A DNA stretch of 64,000 bases from Patescibacteria group bacterium (GCA_041649575.1 JBAZMW010000001.1:87944-151943); one strand, 5' to 3'; numbered from the stretch's first letter, positions 16,731-29,199 are shown. Translations and numbers: made by a program. The notes: a model not told the origin generated them from the letters alone.

Positions 16731-16821
16731 GGAGAGTTCGCATAGTTGGTCTAGTGCGCACGCTTGGAAAGCGTGTAGGGTGTCAAAACCCTCGAGGGTT
16801 CGAATCCCTCACTCTCCGCCA
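16731..16821 (+). tRNA. tRNA-Ser (anticodon GGA)
   Basis: Acceptor stem GGAGAGT/ACTCTCC, anticodon loop TTGGAAA, long variable arm, T-loop GGTTCGAATCC, CCA encoded. Confidence 0.85.
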
Positions 16822-23474: not shown

Positions 23475-23694
23475 ATTATTGACAGCGGCTGGGTTTTTTG
23501 TTAATATTTTTTTAGAGTCATGTCTGATGGCTCTTTTAAAAAAACAAATGATCCGCGATAGCGAAATGGGTCGAGGCCATAGGCCGAGACGGGCAGAAGC
23601 GAGCAAAGCGAGAGTCGATGAATGCGACCTTAGGGAGCATTCAGCGCTGCCCCGGAAGAGCAACCGGCGTTTAGTATATGGCAAAAGTAACAAA

Positions 23695-25164
23695 CTAAAA
23701 ACAAATGATCCGCGATAGCTCAATGGTAGAGCAACCGGCTGTTAACCGGTAGGTTGCTGGTTCGAATCCAGCTCGCGGAGCCAAGAAACTAGATACGAAC
23801 TCATTTTTTGAAGATGAGAGTGTTCGCTCGCCCAGCCCCGCCAATGGCGGGGCTGGCCTTCGCTCCGCGACGGCTTCGCCGTCGTTTTGGCGGGAAATGA
23901 AGCGAATTTTAATGCTTTCGGGGGAATAGAAAATGTTTGAAAGAAACTTTTTAGCAAAAAGATTTCTTTCAATTCCTTTGGTAGTTTTGAGTCCGGTAAT
24001 GAAAAATTTTAGAGTGTCCGAAATGCTTTCGGTGGAAAATTTAGAGCATCCATCCGTTAGTTCGTATCCAGCGCGGTGTCCCGCTTGTTCGTCGTTGTTT
24101 AAGCGAAAAACAAGATTTTCAACATAATTTTTATCAACCGAAATGCGCTCTAAATTTTCCAAACAAAAATCTTCTAATCGTTCGGCGGACACTTGTTTTA
24201 CTGAACACGCTTGCCAGTCCTGTTTCATCGTGGCGGTGCAACGATAGTAATAATAGCGGTTCAATTTTCCAGCGATATATTTGTTGGTAAAACAAGAAGT
24301 CATATTTGAACCACACTCTTCACATTTTATAAGTCCGCCGAACAGGAAGTTTTTGTACACTCTAAAATTTTTCCGCTTTTCCTTATGAATTTTTTGAGCA
24401 AGGGCAAAAATTTCTTCTGAAATTATCGGCTTGTGAATACCTTGATAAATTTCGCCATTGTGTAAAACCTTACCTATGTAGATAACATTTCGCAAAATGT
24501 GGCTGATATTTGTTTTAGAGAAATTTTTGCCTAACTTATTTTTGATACCTCTATCTTTCAGCATTTGGTAAGTTTTCGCCGTTGAGCCGGTTTCAATATA
24601 AGTTTCAAAAATTGATTTTATTTCTTCCGCTTCTTTTTGGTGCGGGATAAGTTTCTTATCTTCTCGCTTGTAGCCATAAGGAGTTAGCCCGCCGTTTGCG
24701 AGCCCCTTTTTCGCGCGCTCCAACATTTTGTCTTTTGTTCTCTCGCTGGTTAGCTCTCGCTCAAATTGAGAAAAAGTGAGCATAATATTGCGAAGCAATC
24801 TTCCGGCGGGCGTTGAAGTATCAAACCTTTCCGTAATGGAAATAAAATCAATTTTTGCTTGCTCAAAAAATTCTATCAGTTGGTAAAAATCTTTTGGAGA
24901 ACGAGTGAGCCGATCGATTTTGTAGACCAAAACCACATCAATTTTTTCTTTTTTCAAATCAGCAAGTAATTCCTGCAAGGCGGGACGTTGTAAAATTGCG
25001 CCAGAAAATCCAGCGTCGTTATAAACTTTAAAAACCTGCCAATCATTTTGACTTTCGATAAACGACCGGATTTTCTGCTCTTGCGCTTCGCAAGATGAAA
25101 ATTCTTTTTCCGCTTGGTTATCAGTTGAAACTCTTGTATAAATGGCGCAATTTTTCATATTCAT
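23695..25164 (-). CDS. large serine recombinase/integrase. The ORF reads through the att arm and the antisense tRNA; the functional core is about 23930-25164.
   Basis: N-terminal catalytic motif AIYTRVSTDNQ, a recombinase domain, and a zinc ribbon (CEECGS...YYYYRC) followed by a coiled coil. The C-terminal AGFEPATYRLTAG is translated antisense tRNA. Confidence 0.88.
   Translation of the reverse strand: MNMKNCAIYTRVSTDNQAEKEFSSCEAQEQKIRSFIESQNDWQVFKVYNDAGFSGAILQRPALQELLADLKKEKIDVVLVYKIDRLTRSPKDFYQLIEFFEQAKIDFISITERFDTSTPAGRLLRNIMLTFSQFERELTSERTKDKMLERAKKGLANGGLTPYGYKREDKKLIPHQKEAEEIKSIFETYIETGSTAKTYQMLKDRGIKNKLGKNFSKTNISHILRNVIYIGKVLHNGEIYQGIHKPIISEEIFALAQKIHKEKRKNFRVYKNFLFGGLIKCEECGSNMTSCFTNKYIAGKLNRYYYYRCTATMKQDWQACSVKQVSAERLEDFCLENLERISVDKNYVENLVFRLNNDEQAGHRAGYELTDGCSKFSTESISDTLKFFITGLKTTKGIERNLFAKKFLSNIFYSPESIKIRFISRQNDGEAVAERRPAPPLAGLGERTLSSSKNEFVSSFLAPRAGFEPATYRLTAGCSTIELSRIICF
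23709..23783 (+). tRNA. tRNA-Asn (anticodon GTT)
   Basis: Acceptor TCCGCGA/TCGCGGA, anticodon loop CTGTTAA, T-loop GGTTCGAATCC, CCA encoded. Its 3' end forms the attL core of the element. Confidence 0.88.
23778..23927 (+). repeat. attL arm (P') of the integrative element. It is the inverted copy of 25202-25353.
   Basis: 150 bp with 1 mismatch to the reverse complement of 25202-25353. It begins with GGAGCCAA, which overlaps the tRNA-Asn 3' end. Confidence 0.9.
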
Positions 25165-25201
25165 AAATTTATATTATTAGTTTTTAAAAAGAAAAAATTG
25201 A

Positions 25202-25555
25202 ATTCCCCCGAAAGCATTAAAATCCGCTTCATTTCCCGCCAAAACGACGGCGAAGCCGTCGCGGAGCGAAGGCCAGCCCCGCCATTGGCGGGGCTGGGCG
25301 AGCGAACACTCTCATCTTCAAAAAATGAGTTCGTATCTAGTTTCTTGGCTCCCGAATTAAAACCTTCGCAAACTTTTGAAATTATTTTGCCAAATCTGAT
25401 ACACAAATCCAAAAAGCGAAACCTGAAATGATACGCCCCGCCACTATTTTTCTGGGGCAAAGGAGGCGGGGCGACGGACTCGCCCGCGCAGAGGAGGGGT
25501 CTGGGGAGGAATCCGCGCGGGCTTCGGCTTTCCTTTTTGAAAAAATCGGCGGCTA
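25202..25555 (+). repeat. composite attP-like repeat (inverted): arm a 25202-25353, core around 25345-25353, arm b 25345-25555
   Basis: The left part is the reverse complement of 23778-23927 and the right part is the reverse complement of 28523-28733 (211/211). It contains GC-rich hairpins. Confidence 0.9.
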
Positions 25556-25633
25556 AAAATTGAAGAAAAATAAAATTCATGTTAGTATAGTTGTGAGGGT
25601 TAAGTTCAACGCTCATACTTATACTATCATACT

Positions 25634-25843
25634 ATGGAAAGTAATAAAAAACAAATTGGGGATAAAATTAAAGCCGTCCGCACAAAACAAGGATTGACGC
25701 AGGATGCCCTTGCTCGAAAATGTGATATTCCCTACACAACACTGACAAAAATTGAATCAAATGTCATAACCAAGCCGTCAATCCAAACAGTTGTTAAGAT
25801 TGCCACAGGGTTGGGCATTTCAGTAGATGAACTTTTGAAATGA
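25634..25843 (+). CDS. XRE-family helix-turn-helix transcriptional regulator
   Basis: HTH_3 motif (LTQDALARKCDIPYTTLTKIESN). Upstream are direct repeats of CATACT/TATACT. Confidence 0.85.
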   Translation: MESNKKQIGDKIKAVRTKQGLTQDALARKCDIPYTTLTKIESNVITKPSIQTVVKIATGLGISVDELLK

Positions 25844-25844
25844 T

Positions 25845-27302
25845 ATGAAATTAACCTCGCTTACAATAAAAAATTTTCGAAGTATTGAAGAGGAAACTTT
25901 TGATATTACAGAAGTTGATAACACCTATACTTTTACGCTCATAGGCATTAACGAATCCGGGAAAAGTAGTTTTTTGAAAGCAGTTTCGTTGGTTGATAAT
26001 GATGATGAAAAAGTTATTTTCCCTAAAGATTATTTTGAGGAAACAGAATCAATTAGCATTGTTTTGAATTACGAGCTTGAAACACAAGAAGAAAAAGACC
26101 TAAAAAGTGCTCTTACAGAAAAGGGATTTGAGAAAGACATTTTATCAAAAATAAAGGTCGAACAGGTTTCTGTTTGTGCGACTTTTGAACCGGTGGCAAA
26201 TGCACCAAAGAAAGTTTTTGATCAGATTACATTTCAGCAAAAAGTTTTTGACGACTACACCTTACTTGGCGACAAACCTACTAAAAAAGACCCACAACAA
26301 ACACAGGAGGATTTTGACATTGAGAAGTATTTTGAAGTGCATTTGCCGAAATATTTTTGGAAAATTGCTCACAGGATTGTTTTTTGGAAATCTGATAGTA
26401 AGCACCTTATCAATGAACAAATAAACCTTGATACATTTGCTGCTAACCCTGAAGAAACATCAATCCCATTGATAAATTGCTTTGAGTTGGCTGGTGTGGC
26501 ACAAGATCAAATTGTCTCGCAAGTTGCTAAACTAAAAACTGACGATGCTGAGATAGATAATCTTGAAGAAAAGCTTGGAGACAAAGTAACTGCCCATATC
26601 AAGAAAGTTTGGTCTAATCATCCAATCAAAATAAAATTTAAGATAAATAATTCATTGCTAACACTTCTCGTTGAGGATGATAAAGTAAAATACAAATCAA
26701 AGACAACCGAGCAGAGAAGTGATGGCTTTCGGCAGTTTATTTCATTCCTCCTAACAATTTCGGCAGAAAGCGCGACAAATCAGCTCTCTAATTCTTTGCT
26801 ATTACTTGATGAGCCGGAAACCCATTTGCATCCCCAAGCACAAGAGTATTTGAAAGACGAATTGATTAAGATAACGAGAAATGACGAAAACAACATCGTC
26901 TTTTTTGCCACGCACTCAAACTACATGATTGATAAGGAACATATTGAACGATGTTTTAGAGTTTCCAAACAATCAAACCGAAGGACAAAATTGGAAAAAT
27001 TTCAAGCAGGTCAGAAATCATATGCGGAGGTAAACTATGAAGTTTTTAATATCGTATCTTCTGACTACCACAACGAGCTATATGGATATTTAGAAGATGT
27101 AGACAAAACAAAATTAGATGGATTAGATAAAACGAAAAAGTGGAAGAATAAGAAAAATAATGGTGTAGAGACAGATGTCTCATTGGCAACTTATATTCGA
27201 CATTCAATCCATCATCCCGAAAATACACTTAATGCAAAATTCACTCCCGAAGAATTGGAGGGGTCAATTGAAAGTTTAAGAAAATTGAAATATGGAAACT
27301 AA
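25845..27302 (+). CDS. AAA_15/AAA_21 (OLD-like, SMC/RecF-like ABC) ATPase without a Toprim domain
   Basis: N-terminal LTIKNFRSI...GINESGKSS, Walker B/D-loop LLLLDEPETHLHPQAQ, and His-loop FFATHS. The ~120 aa C-terminal region is uncharacterised. Confidence 0.85.
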   Translation: MKLTSLTIKNFRSIEEETFDITEVDNTYTFTLIGINESGKSSFLKAVSLVDNDDEKVIFPKDYFEETESISIVLNYELETQEEKDLKSALTEKGFEKDILSKIKVEQVSVCATFEPVANAPKKVFDQITFQQKVFDDYTLLGDKPTKKDPQQTQEDFDIEKYFEVHLPKYFWKIAHRIVFWKSDSKHLINEQINLDTFAANPEETSIPLINCFELAGVAQDQIVSQVAKLKTDDAEIDNLEEKLGDKVTAHIKKVWSNHPIKIKFKINNSLLTLLVEDDKVKYKSKTTEQRSDGFRQFISFLLTISAESATNQLSNSLLLLDEPETHLHPQAQEYLKDELIKITRNDENNIVFFATHSNYMIDKEHIERCFRVSKQSNRRTKLEKFQAGQKSYAEVNYEVFNIVSSDYHNELYGYLEDVDKTKLDGLDKTKKWKNKKNNGVETDVSLATYIRHSIHHPENTLNAKFTPEELEGSIESLRKLKYGN

Positions 27303-27615
27303 AAATGTAAAATTTGTTGTTTTTGTTCCACTCTCTCACGCTGGCGCTGTGCGCCAAGCTCTTGGTGAAGCTGGAGCGGGAAAAATAGGAAATTATGACT
27401 TCTGCTCTTTTTCTTCTCGTGGCACCGGTCGCTTTCGCGGTAATGAAAATACAAATCCTACTATTGGCGAAGCCGGAAAATATGAAGCAGTTGAGGAAGA
27501 ACGGATTGAGGTGATAGTGCCACGAGATATTTTGAGAGAAGTCATCGAAAAAGTAAAAAGTGTTCATCCATATGAGGAAGTCGCTTTTGATATTTATCCG
27601 CTAGAAAATATATGA
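27292..27615 (+). CDS. small PII-like protein (Nif3 insertion-domain/CutA-like)
   Basis: KFVVFVPLSHAGAVRQALGEAGAGKIGNYDFCSF...HPYEEVAFDIYPLEN matches the Nif3 central PII-like domain. Its start overlaps the upstream gene's stop. Confidence 0.6.
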   Translation: METKNVKFVVFVPLSHAGAVRQALGEAGAGKIGNYDFCSFSSRGTGRFRGNENTNPTIGEAGKYEAVEEERIEVIVPRDILREVIEKVKSVHPYEEVAFDIYPLENI

Positions 27616-28067
27616 CCGACAAACAATTTCTCCAAAAAGCAATAGAAAAAGCGAGAGAGTCTGTGGCACAGGGTGGTTTTCCTGCTGGTGCGATAGTCGT
27701 TAAAAATGGAGAAATTATCGGCGAAGGAGTTTCTGTCGGCAATAAACTGAACGACCCGACTAGCCACGGCGAAATGGCCTCAATTCGGGCGGCATGCAAA
27801 AACCTCAATACTTCCGATTTATCAAACTCGATACTCTATGCGTCCATGCAACCTTGCCTAATGTGCCTCGGTGCGTCTATGTGGAGCGCGATACCGAAAA
27901 TCGTTTTTGCATGCCCCAAAGAGAAAGTATCGACTGAATACTACGGCGGACATTACAAGCCGTCTGCTATCAACGCAGAACTAACTCGTCCGATTGAATT
28001 AGTCCATTTCGCCGAACTGGAGAACGAATCGTTGACGATCGTCCGCGAGTGGGAAAAATCATTATGA
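27612..28067 (+). CDS. CDA-fold zinc deaminase (TadA/guanine-deaminase-like)
   Basis: Zinc ligands HGEMASIRAA (HxE) and PCLMCLGA (PCxxC). The start overlaps the upstream stop as ATGA. Confidence 0.85.
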   Translation: MTDKQFLQKAIEKARESVAQGGFPAGAIVVKNGEIIGEGVSVGNKLNDPTSHGEMASIRAACKNLNTSDLSNSILYASMQPCLMCLGASMWSAIPKIVFACPKEKVSTEYYGGHYKPSAINAELTRPIELVHFAELENESLTIVREWEKSL

Positions 28068-28525
28068 ACACCGACAAACTCGCAAAATTTCTAAACGAAG
28101 CAAACAAAGCGACCTACGCCAATAAAACTGCGCCAAAAGTCGCACCCTCTCGTTTAAAGTCAGAGGATTACCAATTTGAAAAAGACGGACTAATTTATCA
28201 CGATACTTATTTTGGTGGGCGCGACTTTATCGGCGAGGAAATCGTATACGAAAATGAGAAACCAGCATGGGGCGCAAATTATTTTGGTTTCGTGCTTGAT
28301 AAAAGTATTAGCGAGAAAGATGTATACGATTTTCTGCGCCGTGCGCTCATGCAGGAATATAATGATGTGATTCCAGTACGAGGACCAAGCAACTTTTCCG
28401 TTGACGACAAAGAATATCGTTTTGTTGTGAATGGCGACCTTGCCAATTTCTCTGGCACAGAGGAAATTTTATTTGACGGAAAAGTTGTTTATCGCTGTCT
28501 AATACACGGAGGATTTATTAGATAG
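28064..28525 (+). CDS. DUF5680-like protein of unknown function
   Basis: YHDTYFGGRDFIGEEIVYENEKPAWGANYFG motif. The start overlaps the deaminase stop as ATGA. The stop codon is the first triplet of the attR arm. Confidence 0.6.
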   Translation: MNTDKLAKFLNEANKATYANKTAPKVAPSRLKSEDYQFEKDGLIYHDTYFGGRDFIGEEIVYENEKPAWGANYFGFVLDKSISEKDVYDFLRRALMQEYNDVIPVRGPSNFSVDDKEYRFVVNGDLANFSGTEEILFDGKVVYRCLIHGGFIR

Positions 28526-28733
28526 CCGCCGATTTTTTCAAAAAGGAAAGCCGAAGCCCGCGCGGATTCCTCCCCAGACCCCTCCTCTGCGCGGGCGAGT
28601 CCGTCGCCCCGCCTCCTTTGCCCCAGAAAAATAGTGGCGGGGCGTATCATTTCAGGTTTCGCTTTTTGGATTTGTGTATCAGATTTGGCAAAATAATTTC
28701 AAAAGTTTGCGAAGGTTTTAATTCGGGAGCCAA
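28523..28733 (+). repeat. attR arm (P) of the integrative element, ending in the GGGAGCCAA core
   Basis: 211 bp identical to the reverse complement of 25345-25555. Confidence 0.9.
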
Positions 28734-28743
28734 ATTGTATGTT

Positions 28744-28773
28744 CGCCACCCTTATGGGTGGTGTTTTGTTTTT
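28744..28773 (+). terminator. rho-independent terminator, probably the original tRNA-Asn terminator displaced by the insertion
   Basis: CGCCACCC / GGGTGGTG stem with a TTAT loop and a T-rich tail, immediately after the attR core. Confidence 0.6.
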
Positions 28774-28803
28774 GATTTATTTTTTTGTTATAATCTAGAT
28801 AAG

Positions 28804-29199
28804 ATGAACACCTACAACTGGTATTCACAACTCATCAAACCATTATGGTCACCGCCAAGCTGGCTTTTTGGACCGGTGTGGACGGTGTTATACGCGATTA
28901 TAGTCGTTTCTTTCGGCACGGTGTTTTATAAAATGCTTACAGGCAAAATTACTTGGATTGTCGCTTTACCGTTTGTGCTCAATCTAGTTTTCAATTTTAT
29001 TTTTACGCCAATTCAATTTGGACTTAAAAATAATCTTTTGGCGGCAATAGACATTTTGCTCGTTCTTGGCACACTCGTTTGGGCAATGGCGGCCATTTAT
29101 CCGTATGCTCGTTGGATCGCATACATCCAAATCCCGCACTTGCTCTGGGTTTCGTTCGCGACTGTTTTACAATTAACCATTACTTATTTGAATAGATAG
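28804..29199 (+). CDS. tspO: TspO/MBR family tryptophan-rich sensory protein
   Basis: WYSQLIKPLWSPPSWLFGPVWTVLY and a five-TM topology. Preceded by an extended -10 (TGTTATAAT, 28786-28794). Confidence 0.85.
   Translation: MNTYNWYSQLIKPLWSPPSWLFGPVWTVLYAIIVVSFGTVFYKMLTGKITWIVALPFVLNLVFNFIFTPIQFGLKNNLLAAIDILLVLGTLVWAMAAIYPYARWIAYIQIPHLLWVSFATVLQLTITYLNR

Follow-up and report, generated by a model that had tools for sequence, protein, structure and literature searches.

Is a tightly coupled run of five genes on a small mobile element one dedicated defence machine, or an assembly of genes that travel separately? We asked this of positions 25,634 to 28,525 in a 64,000-nucleotide (nt) stretch of DNA from Patescibacteria group bacterium (GCA_041649575.1 JBAZMW010000001.1:87944-151943; the whole stretch is called the window below). 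Five co-directional open reading frames (ORFs) on the + strand fill this interval in the ORF listing of the window and encode an XRE regulator, an ATP-binding cassette (ABC) ATPase, a PII-like protein, a zinc deaminase and a DUF5680 protein (Table 1), and the operon rides on an integrative element of ∼4.95 kb (about 23785-28733) that sits at a tRNA-Asn gene beside a large serine recombinase. An earlier note, made from the sequence alone, had proposed that the four genes behind the regulator form a new defence or toxin system. Our analysis makes it fairly probable that the operon is instead a mosaic cargo of separately travelling modules, and not one dedicated multigene machine, with the ATPase as the sole component for which there is good evidence of a conflict role.

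The gene set and its distribution

The full gene set was found in the window element only, the one metagenomic contig that also carries it (L001) being the same sequence. The genes for the PII-like protein, the deaminase and DUF5680 each occur in many other combinations, chromosomal ones included, whereas the ATPase recurs with restriction-modification (R-M) genes. Because the four-gene combination does not recur, we read the cargo as a mosaic assembled from a shared gene pool.

The ATPase has more than 1,500 homologues, mostly in lineages of the candidate phyla radiation (CPR), and to view their genomic contexts we used exact-protein look-ups together with a metagenome scan. Relatives at 84 to 91% identity come, with few exceptions, last in an XRE-led type II R-M operon and have a start that abuts or overlaps the stop of the upstream gene. 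These operons are of at least five kinds, in which the partners are MvaI/BcnI with an N6_N4 methyltransferase (MTase) (L005-10, L036-38, L041 and L053), a MutH-like restriction endonuclease (REase) with an MTase (L039), T5orf172 with Tsp45I and an MTase (L042), an EcoRI-type MTase with GmrSD_N/HNH (L043, L045 and L046), or other MTases (L040 and L044), and several of them adjoin a serine recombinase. About 18 loci have type II R-M genes immediately upstream of a close ATPase relative and none of the genes for the PII-like protein, the deaminase or DUF5680; among all ∼20 loci with ATPase relatives at least 84% identical, both the deaminase and DUF5680 were found zero times. Only one other element among the ATPase loci holds a PII-like gene (L030/L031), in the order recombinase, XRE, ATPase, PII-like, with the deaminase and DUF5680 absent. 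More distant relatives are solitary (L011-15), stand behind an IS1595 transposase (L048) or lie ahead of an MTase (L051). In the window operon, Pfam detected no MTase or REase domain in the four genes downstream of XRE, and the ATPase is here orphaned from R-M.

Over its full length, the 107-aa protein can be aligned with the PII-like insert of the Bacillus cereus NIF3-related protein 2gx8 (residues 163-262, 7.4e-36) and also matches SA1388 (9e-15). No Pfam family matched it, NIF3 included: unlike the NIF3 proteins YqfO and SA1388, it consists of the insert only, and the dinuclear-metal catalytic NIF3 domains are wholly absent. PII and CutA folds bind small ligands, and by analogy this protein presumably does the same. 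The best 120 of its 1,980 homologues are 82 to 92% identical to it. Related genes are monocistronic beside an MNT/HepT pair, lie between His_Phos_1 and a GDSL lipase (L032), or form part of XRE-RibD_C-PII-SET and XRE-HNH-RibD_C-PII-Ser_hydrolase operons. In the window, the protein probably works independently of the ATPase.

In addition to its main Pfam family, the deaminase matches MafB19-deam (1e-20), and its zinc/catalytic H-x-E ... PC-x-x-C site is complete (H52, E54, C82 and C85). Residues 3-129 align with the Bacillus subtilis guanine deaminase GuaD (1tiy, 2.7e-22) and the protein aligns with TadA at 2e-21, so that its closest solved relatives are these two enzymes and plant guanosine deaminase. 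It differs from them in a C-terminus unlike that of GuaD and in a score of 74 bits against the TadA NCBIfam model, under the equivalog cut-off of 150. The PADLOC dCTPase profile gave 13 bits (E 0.0078) over 54 residues, and by PADLOC the protein falls outside the defence dCTP deaminase family; by sequence, it looks like a housekeeping-type enzyme.

DUF5680 was modelled (pLDDT [predicted local distance difference test] of 94) as two four-stranded beta-meanders plus two helices, a fold with no good match in the PDB and nothing below E 0.008 in BFVD, and a literature search on the family gave nothing relevant. In 14 genome loci with a DUF5680 gene, the deaminase gene lies directly upstream in 4 (L016-18 and L029), and neither the ATPase nor the PII-like gene is present in any. 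The L029 pair follows a nucleoside diphosphate kinase gene in an ordinary chromosomal stretch. Elsewhere, DUF5680 stands immediately behind XRE, or else behind a TdeIII or EcoO109I REase gene or a gene for an EVE-domain protein, EamA or a small enzyme. Behind TdeIII, EcoO109I or the EVE-domain protein (L021, L023 and L020), DUF5680 comes last, which is the tail position that the ATPase has in other R-M operons. The deaminase and DUF5680 would form a pair that is probably independent as well, with small molecules or nucleotides as the most likely substrates.

The PII-like protein, DUF5680 and the deaminase are 70 to 92% identical between metagenome-assembled genomes (MAGs) labelled Paceibacterota, Moraniibacteriota, Saccharibacteria and Doudnabacteria; equally similar copies occur in MAGs labelled Gammaproteobacteria and Asaia, possibly through binning errors. 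High identity across such distant CPR lineages points to recent and wide horizontal spread. Neither the ATPase nor DUF5680 nor the PII-like protein had relatives among the IMG/VR viral contigs, and a phage origin is not supported.

In its make-up, the operon is largely as the earlier note had described it. The gene coordinates and the translational coupling stand, with a 1-nt spacer between XRE and the ATPase (TGA-T-ATG), an 11-nt overlap between the ATPase and PII-like genes (ATGGAAACTAA) and ATGA overlaps at both remaining junctions; the DUF5680 start is the ATG at 28064, an earlier GTG at 28049 also being possible. Profile searches agree with the proposed domains (HTH_3, AAA_15 without Toprim, a NIF3-insert PII-like protein, dCMP_cyt_deam_1 and DUF5680), the ATPase does fall among the OLD, Septu, PARIS and Gabija types, and the operon is indeed carried by a mobile element at a tRNA gene. 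The repeated CATACT boxes fared less well: two copies do lie upstream of XRE (at 25614 and at 25628, where the second abuts the XRE ATG), but the hexamer is at chance frequency across the whole window (12 found against 14 expected), and we dropped it as an enriched motif, the local pair alone being notable.

XRE matches the PADLOC Control_protein profile (1.6e-10) as well as HipB/RstR-type profiles, and is 40 to 46% identical to the XRE genes that head the R-M operons of L005, L037 and L045; it is, as far as sequence goes, similar to the C (control) proteins of such operons. TATACT occupies 25620-25625, 8 nt ahead of the XRE ATG and with no obvious Shine-Dalgarno sequence, and inverted half-sites are found at 25583 (TAGTATA) and 25620 (TATACTA). 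Some R-M C-protein genes have leaderless, autoregulated transcripts, and this layout (25580-25636) suggests the same here, with XRE as a C-protein-like autoregulator that would act on the TATACT/CATACT region near the possibly leaderless start. A short XRE/C-like regulator at the head of a tightly coupled operon is what C-protein type II R-M operons have, and relatives run MTase, REase, ATPase; the window operon differs from these in having neither of the first two.

The ATPase and its C-terminal domain

Profile searches and a structure model place the ATPase in the OLD/PtuA/GajA/AriA class of conflict-system ABC ATPases. Residues 1-362 match Pfam AAA_15 (1.6e-22), with matches to AAA_21 and DUF2813 as well, and 44 homologues show no variation in Walker A, a signature-like QRSDGF, Walker B DE or the THLHP/ATHS motifs. 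PADLOC returned Old (1.9e-25), AriA (6.6e-24), GajA and PtuA (both ∼1e-14), HEC-01A and others, all as partial matches, and no model spans the whole protein. With the AlphaFold2 (AF2) model (pLDDT 91.7) as the query, the nearest Foldseek matches were PtuA of Septu and retron complexes, Thermus OLD, Rad50/SMC heads and GajA, the fold being close to that of OLD 6p74. Neither Toprim nor DUF4435 matched the ATPase or its four operon neighbours (Pfam and PADLOC), and AAA_13, the PrrC/RloC-type profile, did not match the ATPase at an E value of ≤0.01 (Pfam). No GajB UvrD-like helicase was found in the operon or on the element (Pfam and PADLOC), and no HNH protein (PtuB) in the window operon (Pfam). 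Thus the core resembles those of OLD, GajA, AriA and PtuA by profile and structure, whereas the protein differs from the OLD, Gabija, PARIS and Septu components in having no Toprim domain, no GajB, AriB or PtuB partner, and a C-terminal domain of its own.

In the model, this C-terminal domain is made of helices at 393-401 and 406-425, a hairpin at 431-445 and helices at 447-456 and 468-483. Used alone as a query against 1.8 billion representatives, it retrieved 443 clusters (50% identity), and it stood behind AAA_15 in nine of the 10 matches that were scanned with Pfam, the tenth having no Pfam match of any kind. Across 76 diverse members, H409, E411, LYG, R452, H456, H457, P458, E459 and N460 are 95 to 100% conserved, and R452, H456 and H457 reach 99 to 100%. 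HEPN RNases are defined by an Rx4-6H motif, usually with a polar residue after the arginine and an insert between helices 2 and 3. R452-[H/N]-x-I-H456-H457, part of a motif that can be written YIR[H/N]xIHHPEN or R[NH]xIHHPEN, fits Rx4H, and the polar residue and the helix 2/3 insert fit too. Pfam (E ≤ 10), PADLOC (E ≤ 10) and a search of PDB sequences by profile gave no match to the domain. We hypothesize that it is HEPN-like, and it could be an effector. An HNH (beta-beta-alpha) reading was dropped, the hairpin having no invariant histidine.

Published ABC-ATPase defences (PrrC, PARIS and Gabija) carry fused or adjacent effectors and often sit inside R-M or other systems as back-ups that are triggered by anti-restriction proteins. 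In the light of these systems, the most likely role of the ATPase family is that of an R-M-linked, ATP-gated effector: an ATP-dependent dimer would sense an infection cue or the loss of restriction, as in PrrC, PARIS, Gabija and Septu, and would switch on the fused C-terminal domain with its R-[N/H]-x-x-H-H motif, growth arrest being the expected outcome.

The arrangement that the operon most resembles, at the level of the ATPase family, is of the PrrC type. It shares with PrrC and RloC (i) an ABC-type ATPase fused to a small C-terminal domain with an invariant Arg...His motif, (ii) genes embedded in or appended to R-M operons and (iii) the suggested back-up logic of firing when restriction fails, which we infer by analogy and take as unproven. 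It differs in that (i) the ATPase matches AAA_15 and AAA_21, not the PrrC/RloC-type profile, (ii) the partners are type II R-M systems, those of PrrC and RloC being type Ic, and (iii) the C-terminal domain has no detectable sequence kinship to known HEPN families. The R-M linkage itself is a property of the family and is absent in the window.

The integrative element and its inverted repeats

In this CPR genome, a large serine recombinase placed the element at the tRNA-Asn 3′ end. The recombinase has the N-terminal YTRVST motif with the catalytic serine and matches a CcrB-like profile at 6.6e-60, below the cut-off. Two pairs of inverted repeats divide the element, A/A′ bracketing the recombinase and B/B′ bracketing the operon exactly. 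When the junctions were aligned, tRNA/A, B′/host and the B′/A reverse complement inside the element had only GGAGCCAA, the tRNA 3′ end, in common, and A′ plus B is the exact reverse complement of the attP site (B′/A) that attL and attR predict, with its core TTGGCTCC at 25345-25352. From these sequences, the pattern is that of an attL, an attR and an intact, inverted attP inside the element; the predicted empty attB sequence is GCTCGCGGAGCCAAATTGTATGTTCGCC.

An excised circular form would contain two attP sites in inverse orientation, like the 2-micron plasmid. That yeast plasmid consists of two unique segments parted by two inverted repeats, and the phage P1 C-segment is likewise DNA that isomerises through inverted repeats. 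The window element shares with the 2-micron plasmid the two unique segments and the inverted repeats, isomerisation of the element being only hypothetical.

The arms have a GC content of 0.51 to 0.55, against 0.36 to 0.38 in the unique segments, and form four strong hairpins (z = -4.2); in an Rfam scan of 23500-29000 the tRNA alone matched, no RNA family being recognised in the GC-rich arms. Arm A and the antisense of the tRNA supply the last ∼75 codons of the recombinase ORF (23695-23930), the last ∼26 residues being tRNA antisense, and the inverted copy (25198-25431) holds a 77-aa ORF with the same residues as this C-terminal stretch followed by a different tail. Since the ORF runs through arm A into the tRNA, the C-terminus of the recombinase would differ between the integrated and the excised state. 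The hairpin just beyond the right end is probably the original tRNA-Asn terminator; past it lie a promoter-like sequence, TTGTTATAAT (28780-28803), and then TspO.

The metagenome assemblies that overlap the window bear on the reality of this layout. The MEGAHIT contig L001 (3,249 nt) equals window positions 25415-28663 and ends in 141-nt inverted copies, as a k=141 graph yields for a segment between inverted repeats. From the TspO side, the MEGAHIT contig L003 joins host DNA to the whole of arm B′ and stops exactly at 28523, and the Logan unitig L004 breaks off 30 nt inside B′, where an end would be expected if B′ leads into two different sequences. The metagenome that yielded L001 also holds a 116-kb contig (L002, ENA ERZ27247363 k141_2981410) with identical host DNA, tRNA-Asn, arm A and recombinase; there (1-2735), a diverged copy of A′B (96-97%) is followed by a different XRE-led cargo of three zinc-ribbon/DZR membrane proteins. 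Beyond the inner edge of arm B this contig no longer resembles the window, which indicates that cargo is swapped at the arms within one population.

The same layout (tRNA/A-recombinase-A′/B-cargo-B′/host) recurs with unrelated arms and cores in at least four elements that sit at different tRNAs, and the logic of attL, attR and inverted attP also fits L030, L045 and L032, each with another core. Near-perfect inverted repeats of 100 to 260 nt bracket the cargo alone in L018, L020, L022, L039 (twice), L042, L044 and L068-70. The commonest identifiable cargo of these related elements is R-M systems. Small and highly conserved genes, which this CPR element family shuffles behind XRE, would form the pool from which the cargo comes. 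The B arms are homologous between elements and have in common a GC-rich hairpin with a G-rich loop (GGAGGGGTCTGGGGAGGAA). In the window, a tRNA-Ser(GGA) gene at 16731-16821 carries no insertion; it has the same anticodon as the tRNA-Ser that related elements occupy in L030 and L019.

In the literature, we found no description of CPR serine-recombinase elements with such inverted repeats or with an internal inverted attP. Tycheposons and serine recombinase elements of the phage or SCC (staphylococcal cassette chromosome) type are likewise small, sit at tRNA 3′ ends and vary in cargo behind identical integration modules. The window element differs from them in its size of ∼5 kb, in having a large serine recombinase only and no replication module, and in the inverted repeats round each module and the internal attP, neither of which we found described for those elements. 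Defence cargo bracketed by long inverted repeats is also known from R-M units (Furuta, Abe and Kobayashi 2010), where the repeats are imperfect and 26 to 65 bp long, with 8-bp direct target duplications and no linked recombinase; in the elements studied here, the repeats are 80 to 260 nt long and 98 to 100% identical and coincide with serine-recombinase att arms.

Table 1. Coordinates of the element, its operon and related double repeat layouts (window positions unless a locus is named)
Feature	Position	Strand	Basis or remarks
tRNA-Asn (GTT), integration target	23709-23783	+	ARAGORN; Rfam 76 bits; 3′ end GGAGCCA(A) is the crossover core by junction alignment
Arm A, left end (attL = tRNA/A)	23777-23927	.	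Repeat I2, 151 nt, 99%; GC 0.545; hairpins; crossed by recombinase ORF
Large serine recombinase	23695-25164	-	Pfam Resolvase 5.6e-42, Recombinase 4.5e-18, Zn_ribbon_recom 2.3e-11
Arm A′, inverted copy of arm A, between recombinase start and arm B	25202-25352	.	Repeat I2
Arm B	25345-25555	.	Inverted repeat I1, 211 nt, 100%
Unique operon upstream region (promoter and operator roles inferred)	25556-25633	+	Two CATACT boxes, TATACT, TAGTATA/TATACTA half-sites
XRE/Cro-C1-type helix-turn-helix regulator, 69 aa	25634-25843	+	HTH_3 3.2e-16
ABC ATPase, AAA_15 (OLD/PtuA-like) class, 485 aa, no Toprim	25845-27302	+	Pfam, PADLOC, AF2 model, Foldseek
ATPase C-terminal domain, aa 386-485	∼27000-27299	+	Invariant HNELYG and R452-x3-H456-H457-P-E-N
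Stand-alone PII-like domain protein, 107 aa	27292-27615	+	Matches insert domain of NIF3 proteins
Cytidine deaminase (CDA)-fold zinc deaminase, 151 aa, GuaD/TadA/guanosine-deaminase clade	27612-28067	+	Pfam dCMP_cyt_deam_1 7.6e-24
DUF5680 protein, 153 aa	28064-28525	+	Pfam 2.3e-32
Arm B′, right end (attR = B′/host)	28523-28733	.	Repeat I1; terminal GGAGCCAA at 28726-28733
Host terminator-like hairpin just beyond right end	28744-28763	+	Sequence
Double repeat layout, L030, tRNA-Ser	713-832/2238-2357; 2352-2558/6315-6521		
Double repeat layout, L045 (also L046), tRNA-Gln	601-681/2180-2260; 2257-2408/6433-6584		
Double repeat layout, L032, another tRNA	21-144/1642-1765; 1761-2023/6989-7251		CP129473.1, single-contig record of 691,769 nt

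Alternative explanations and implications

Several of our observations weigh against a mosaic of independent modules. The four genes of the window are coupled as tightly as in any operon, and L030/L031 repeat the 11-nt overlap between the ATPase and PII-like genes, so that this pair could be functionally linked. DUF5680 at the tail of R-M operons may be defence related rather than metabolic. The likeness of the ATPase C-terminal domain to HEPN proteins lies in the motif and the helix order only, with no sequence match in Pfam, PADLOC or the PDB. Finally, the 14 genome loci, 21 metagenome loci and look-ups are small sets that come from pattern-seeded searches favouring close relatives.

One alternative, which we judge unlikely, is that the cargo is accessory and metabolic, the deaminase, a PII-like regulator and a DUF5680 ligand binder making up for a CPR cell's reduced nucleotide metabolism and the ATPase playing no part in defence. 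The neighbours of these genes elsewhere (nucleoside diphosphate kinase, His_Phos_1, RibD_C, Ser_hydrolase, Peptidase_S51, S-adenosylmethionine [SAM] methyltransferases and NUDIX) would suit such a role, as would a deaminase nearest to guanine and guanosine deaminases, a PII-like gene that can stand alone on a chromosome and the absence of viral relatives in IMG/VR. It does not accommodate an ATPase family consistently tied to R-M operons, DUF5680 genes behind restriction enzymes in three loci, or the prevalence of R-M cargo in the same element family.

We consider it improbable that the genes form a single integrated four- or five-gene defence system, in which the ATPase would sense, the PII-like protein bind a nucleotide signal, the deaminase act as the effector by depletion or editing and DUF5680 serve as a partner. 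Such a system would account for the tight translational coupling, the conflict-type ATPase and the carriage on a mobile element, and parts of the set do recur, the ATPase/PII-like pair once and the deaminase/DUF5680 pair four times. Its distribution argues the other way: the complete set is confined to this one element, the ∼18 R-M loci with close ATPase relatives have none of the other three genes, and those three keep many other companions. The single system proposed in the earlier note is thus not borne out by recurrence. Nor does a dCTP-depleting deaminase, as the note had suggested, find a counterpart in an enzyme that resembles housekeeping GuaD and TadA and not the defence dCTP deaminase. 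The note had named a conserved metabolic setting, such as purine salvage, as evidence that would speak against its proposal; the L029 pair beside the nucleoside diphosphate kinase comes near to such a setting.

We give equally little credence to the operon as a set of addiction or toxin modules that stabilise the element, with XRE repressing a toxic ATPase-nuclease and DUF5680 providing immunity to a toxin deaminase, its orphan copies being orphan immunity genes. XRE does resemble antitoxins and repressors in its HipB/RstR-type matches, AAA_21 is annotated in Pfam as a putative AbiEii toxin family, the deaminase has its MafB19-deam match, and in the inspected loci DUF5680 is seen without the deaminase but the deaminase never without DUF5680. 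These loci were chosen through DUF5680, however, which biases that asymmetry; moreover, the deaminase lacks any toxin-delivery domain and has metabolic enzymes as near relatives, nothing in the DUF5680 fold suggests an inhibitor, and in most operons DUF5680 stands behind unrelated genes.

That the operon is joined to the recombinase and the tRNA only through shared repeats, and really lies elsewhere or on a separate molecule, is very unlikely: repeats 100% and 99% identical could mislead an assembler, and in the MEGAHIT assembly ERZ27247363 the recombinase contig (L002) leads through a diverged A′B to other cargo while the operon forms a separate 3.2-kb contig, but the same layout was rebuilt from unrelated sequences by different assemblers at tRNA-Ser (L030), at tRNA-Gln (L045/46) and in the single-contig CP129473.1 (L032), L003 ties host DNA to the whole of arm B′, and the end of L004 fits two continuations, for which reasons we rejected the inverted repeats as an assembly artefact.

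With the operon read as mosaic cargo, the combination of ATPase, PII-like protein and deaminase is a one-off, and a false lead for cloning as a "system" is removed. Two targets would be better: the ABC-ATPase family, as yet uncharacterised, whose genes systematically end many different type II R-M operons of CPR bacteria and which is a candidate back-up effector for R-M, and the compact recombinase element with its internal inverted attP and its perfect inverted repeats round each module. Taking both strands together, we tentatively propose, as a possibility that we would not yet call likely, that Patescibacteria harbour an undescribed family of ∼5-kb large-serine-recombinase elements, whose excised form would have two inverted attP sites between the recombinase and cargo segments and whose inverted-repeat-bounded cassettes of R-M genes, ATPase and small enzymes would be exchanged between elements with the same integrase, and that the AAA_15 ATPase with the HNELYG/R[NH]xIHHPEN domain represents a new effector that is widespread (443 clusters at 50% identity) and guards type II R-M systems as PrrC guards type I. 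The layout of the element could explain how small genes stay 80 to 90% identical across distant CPR lineages, and how cargo is swapped between elements in these tiny genomes.

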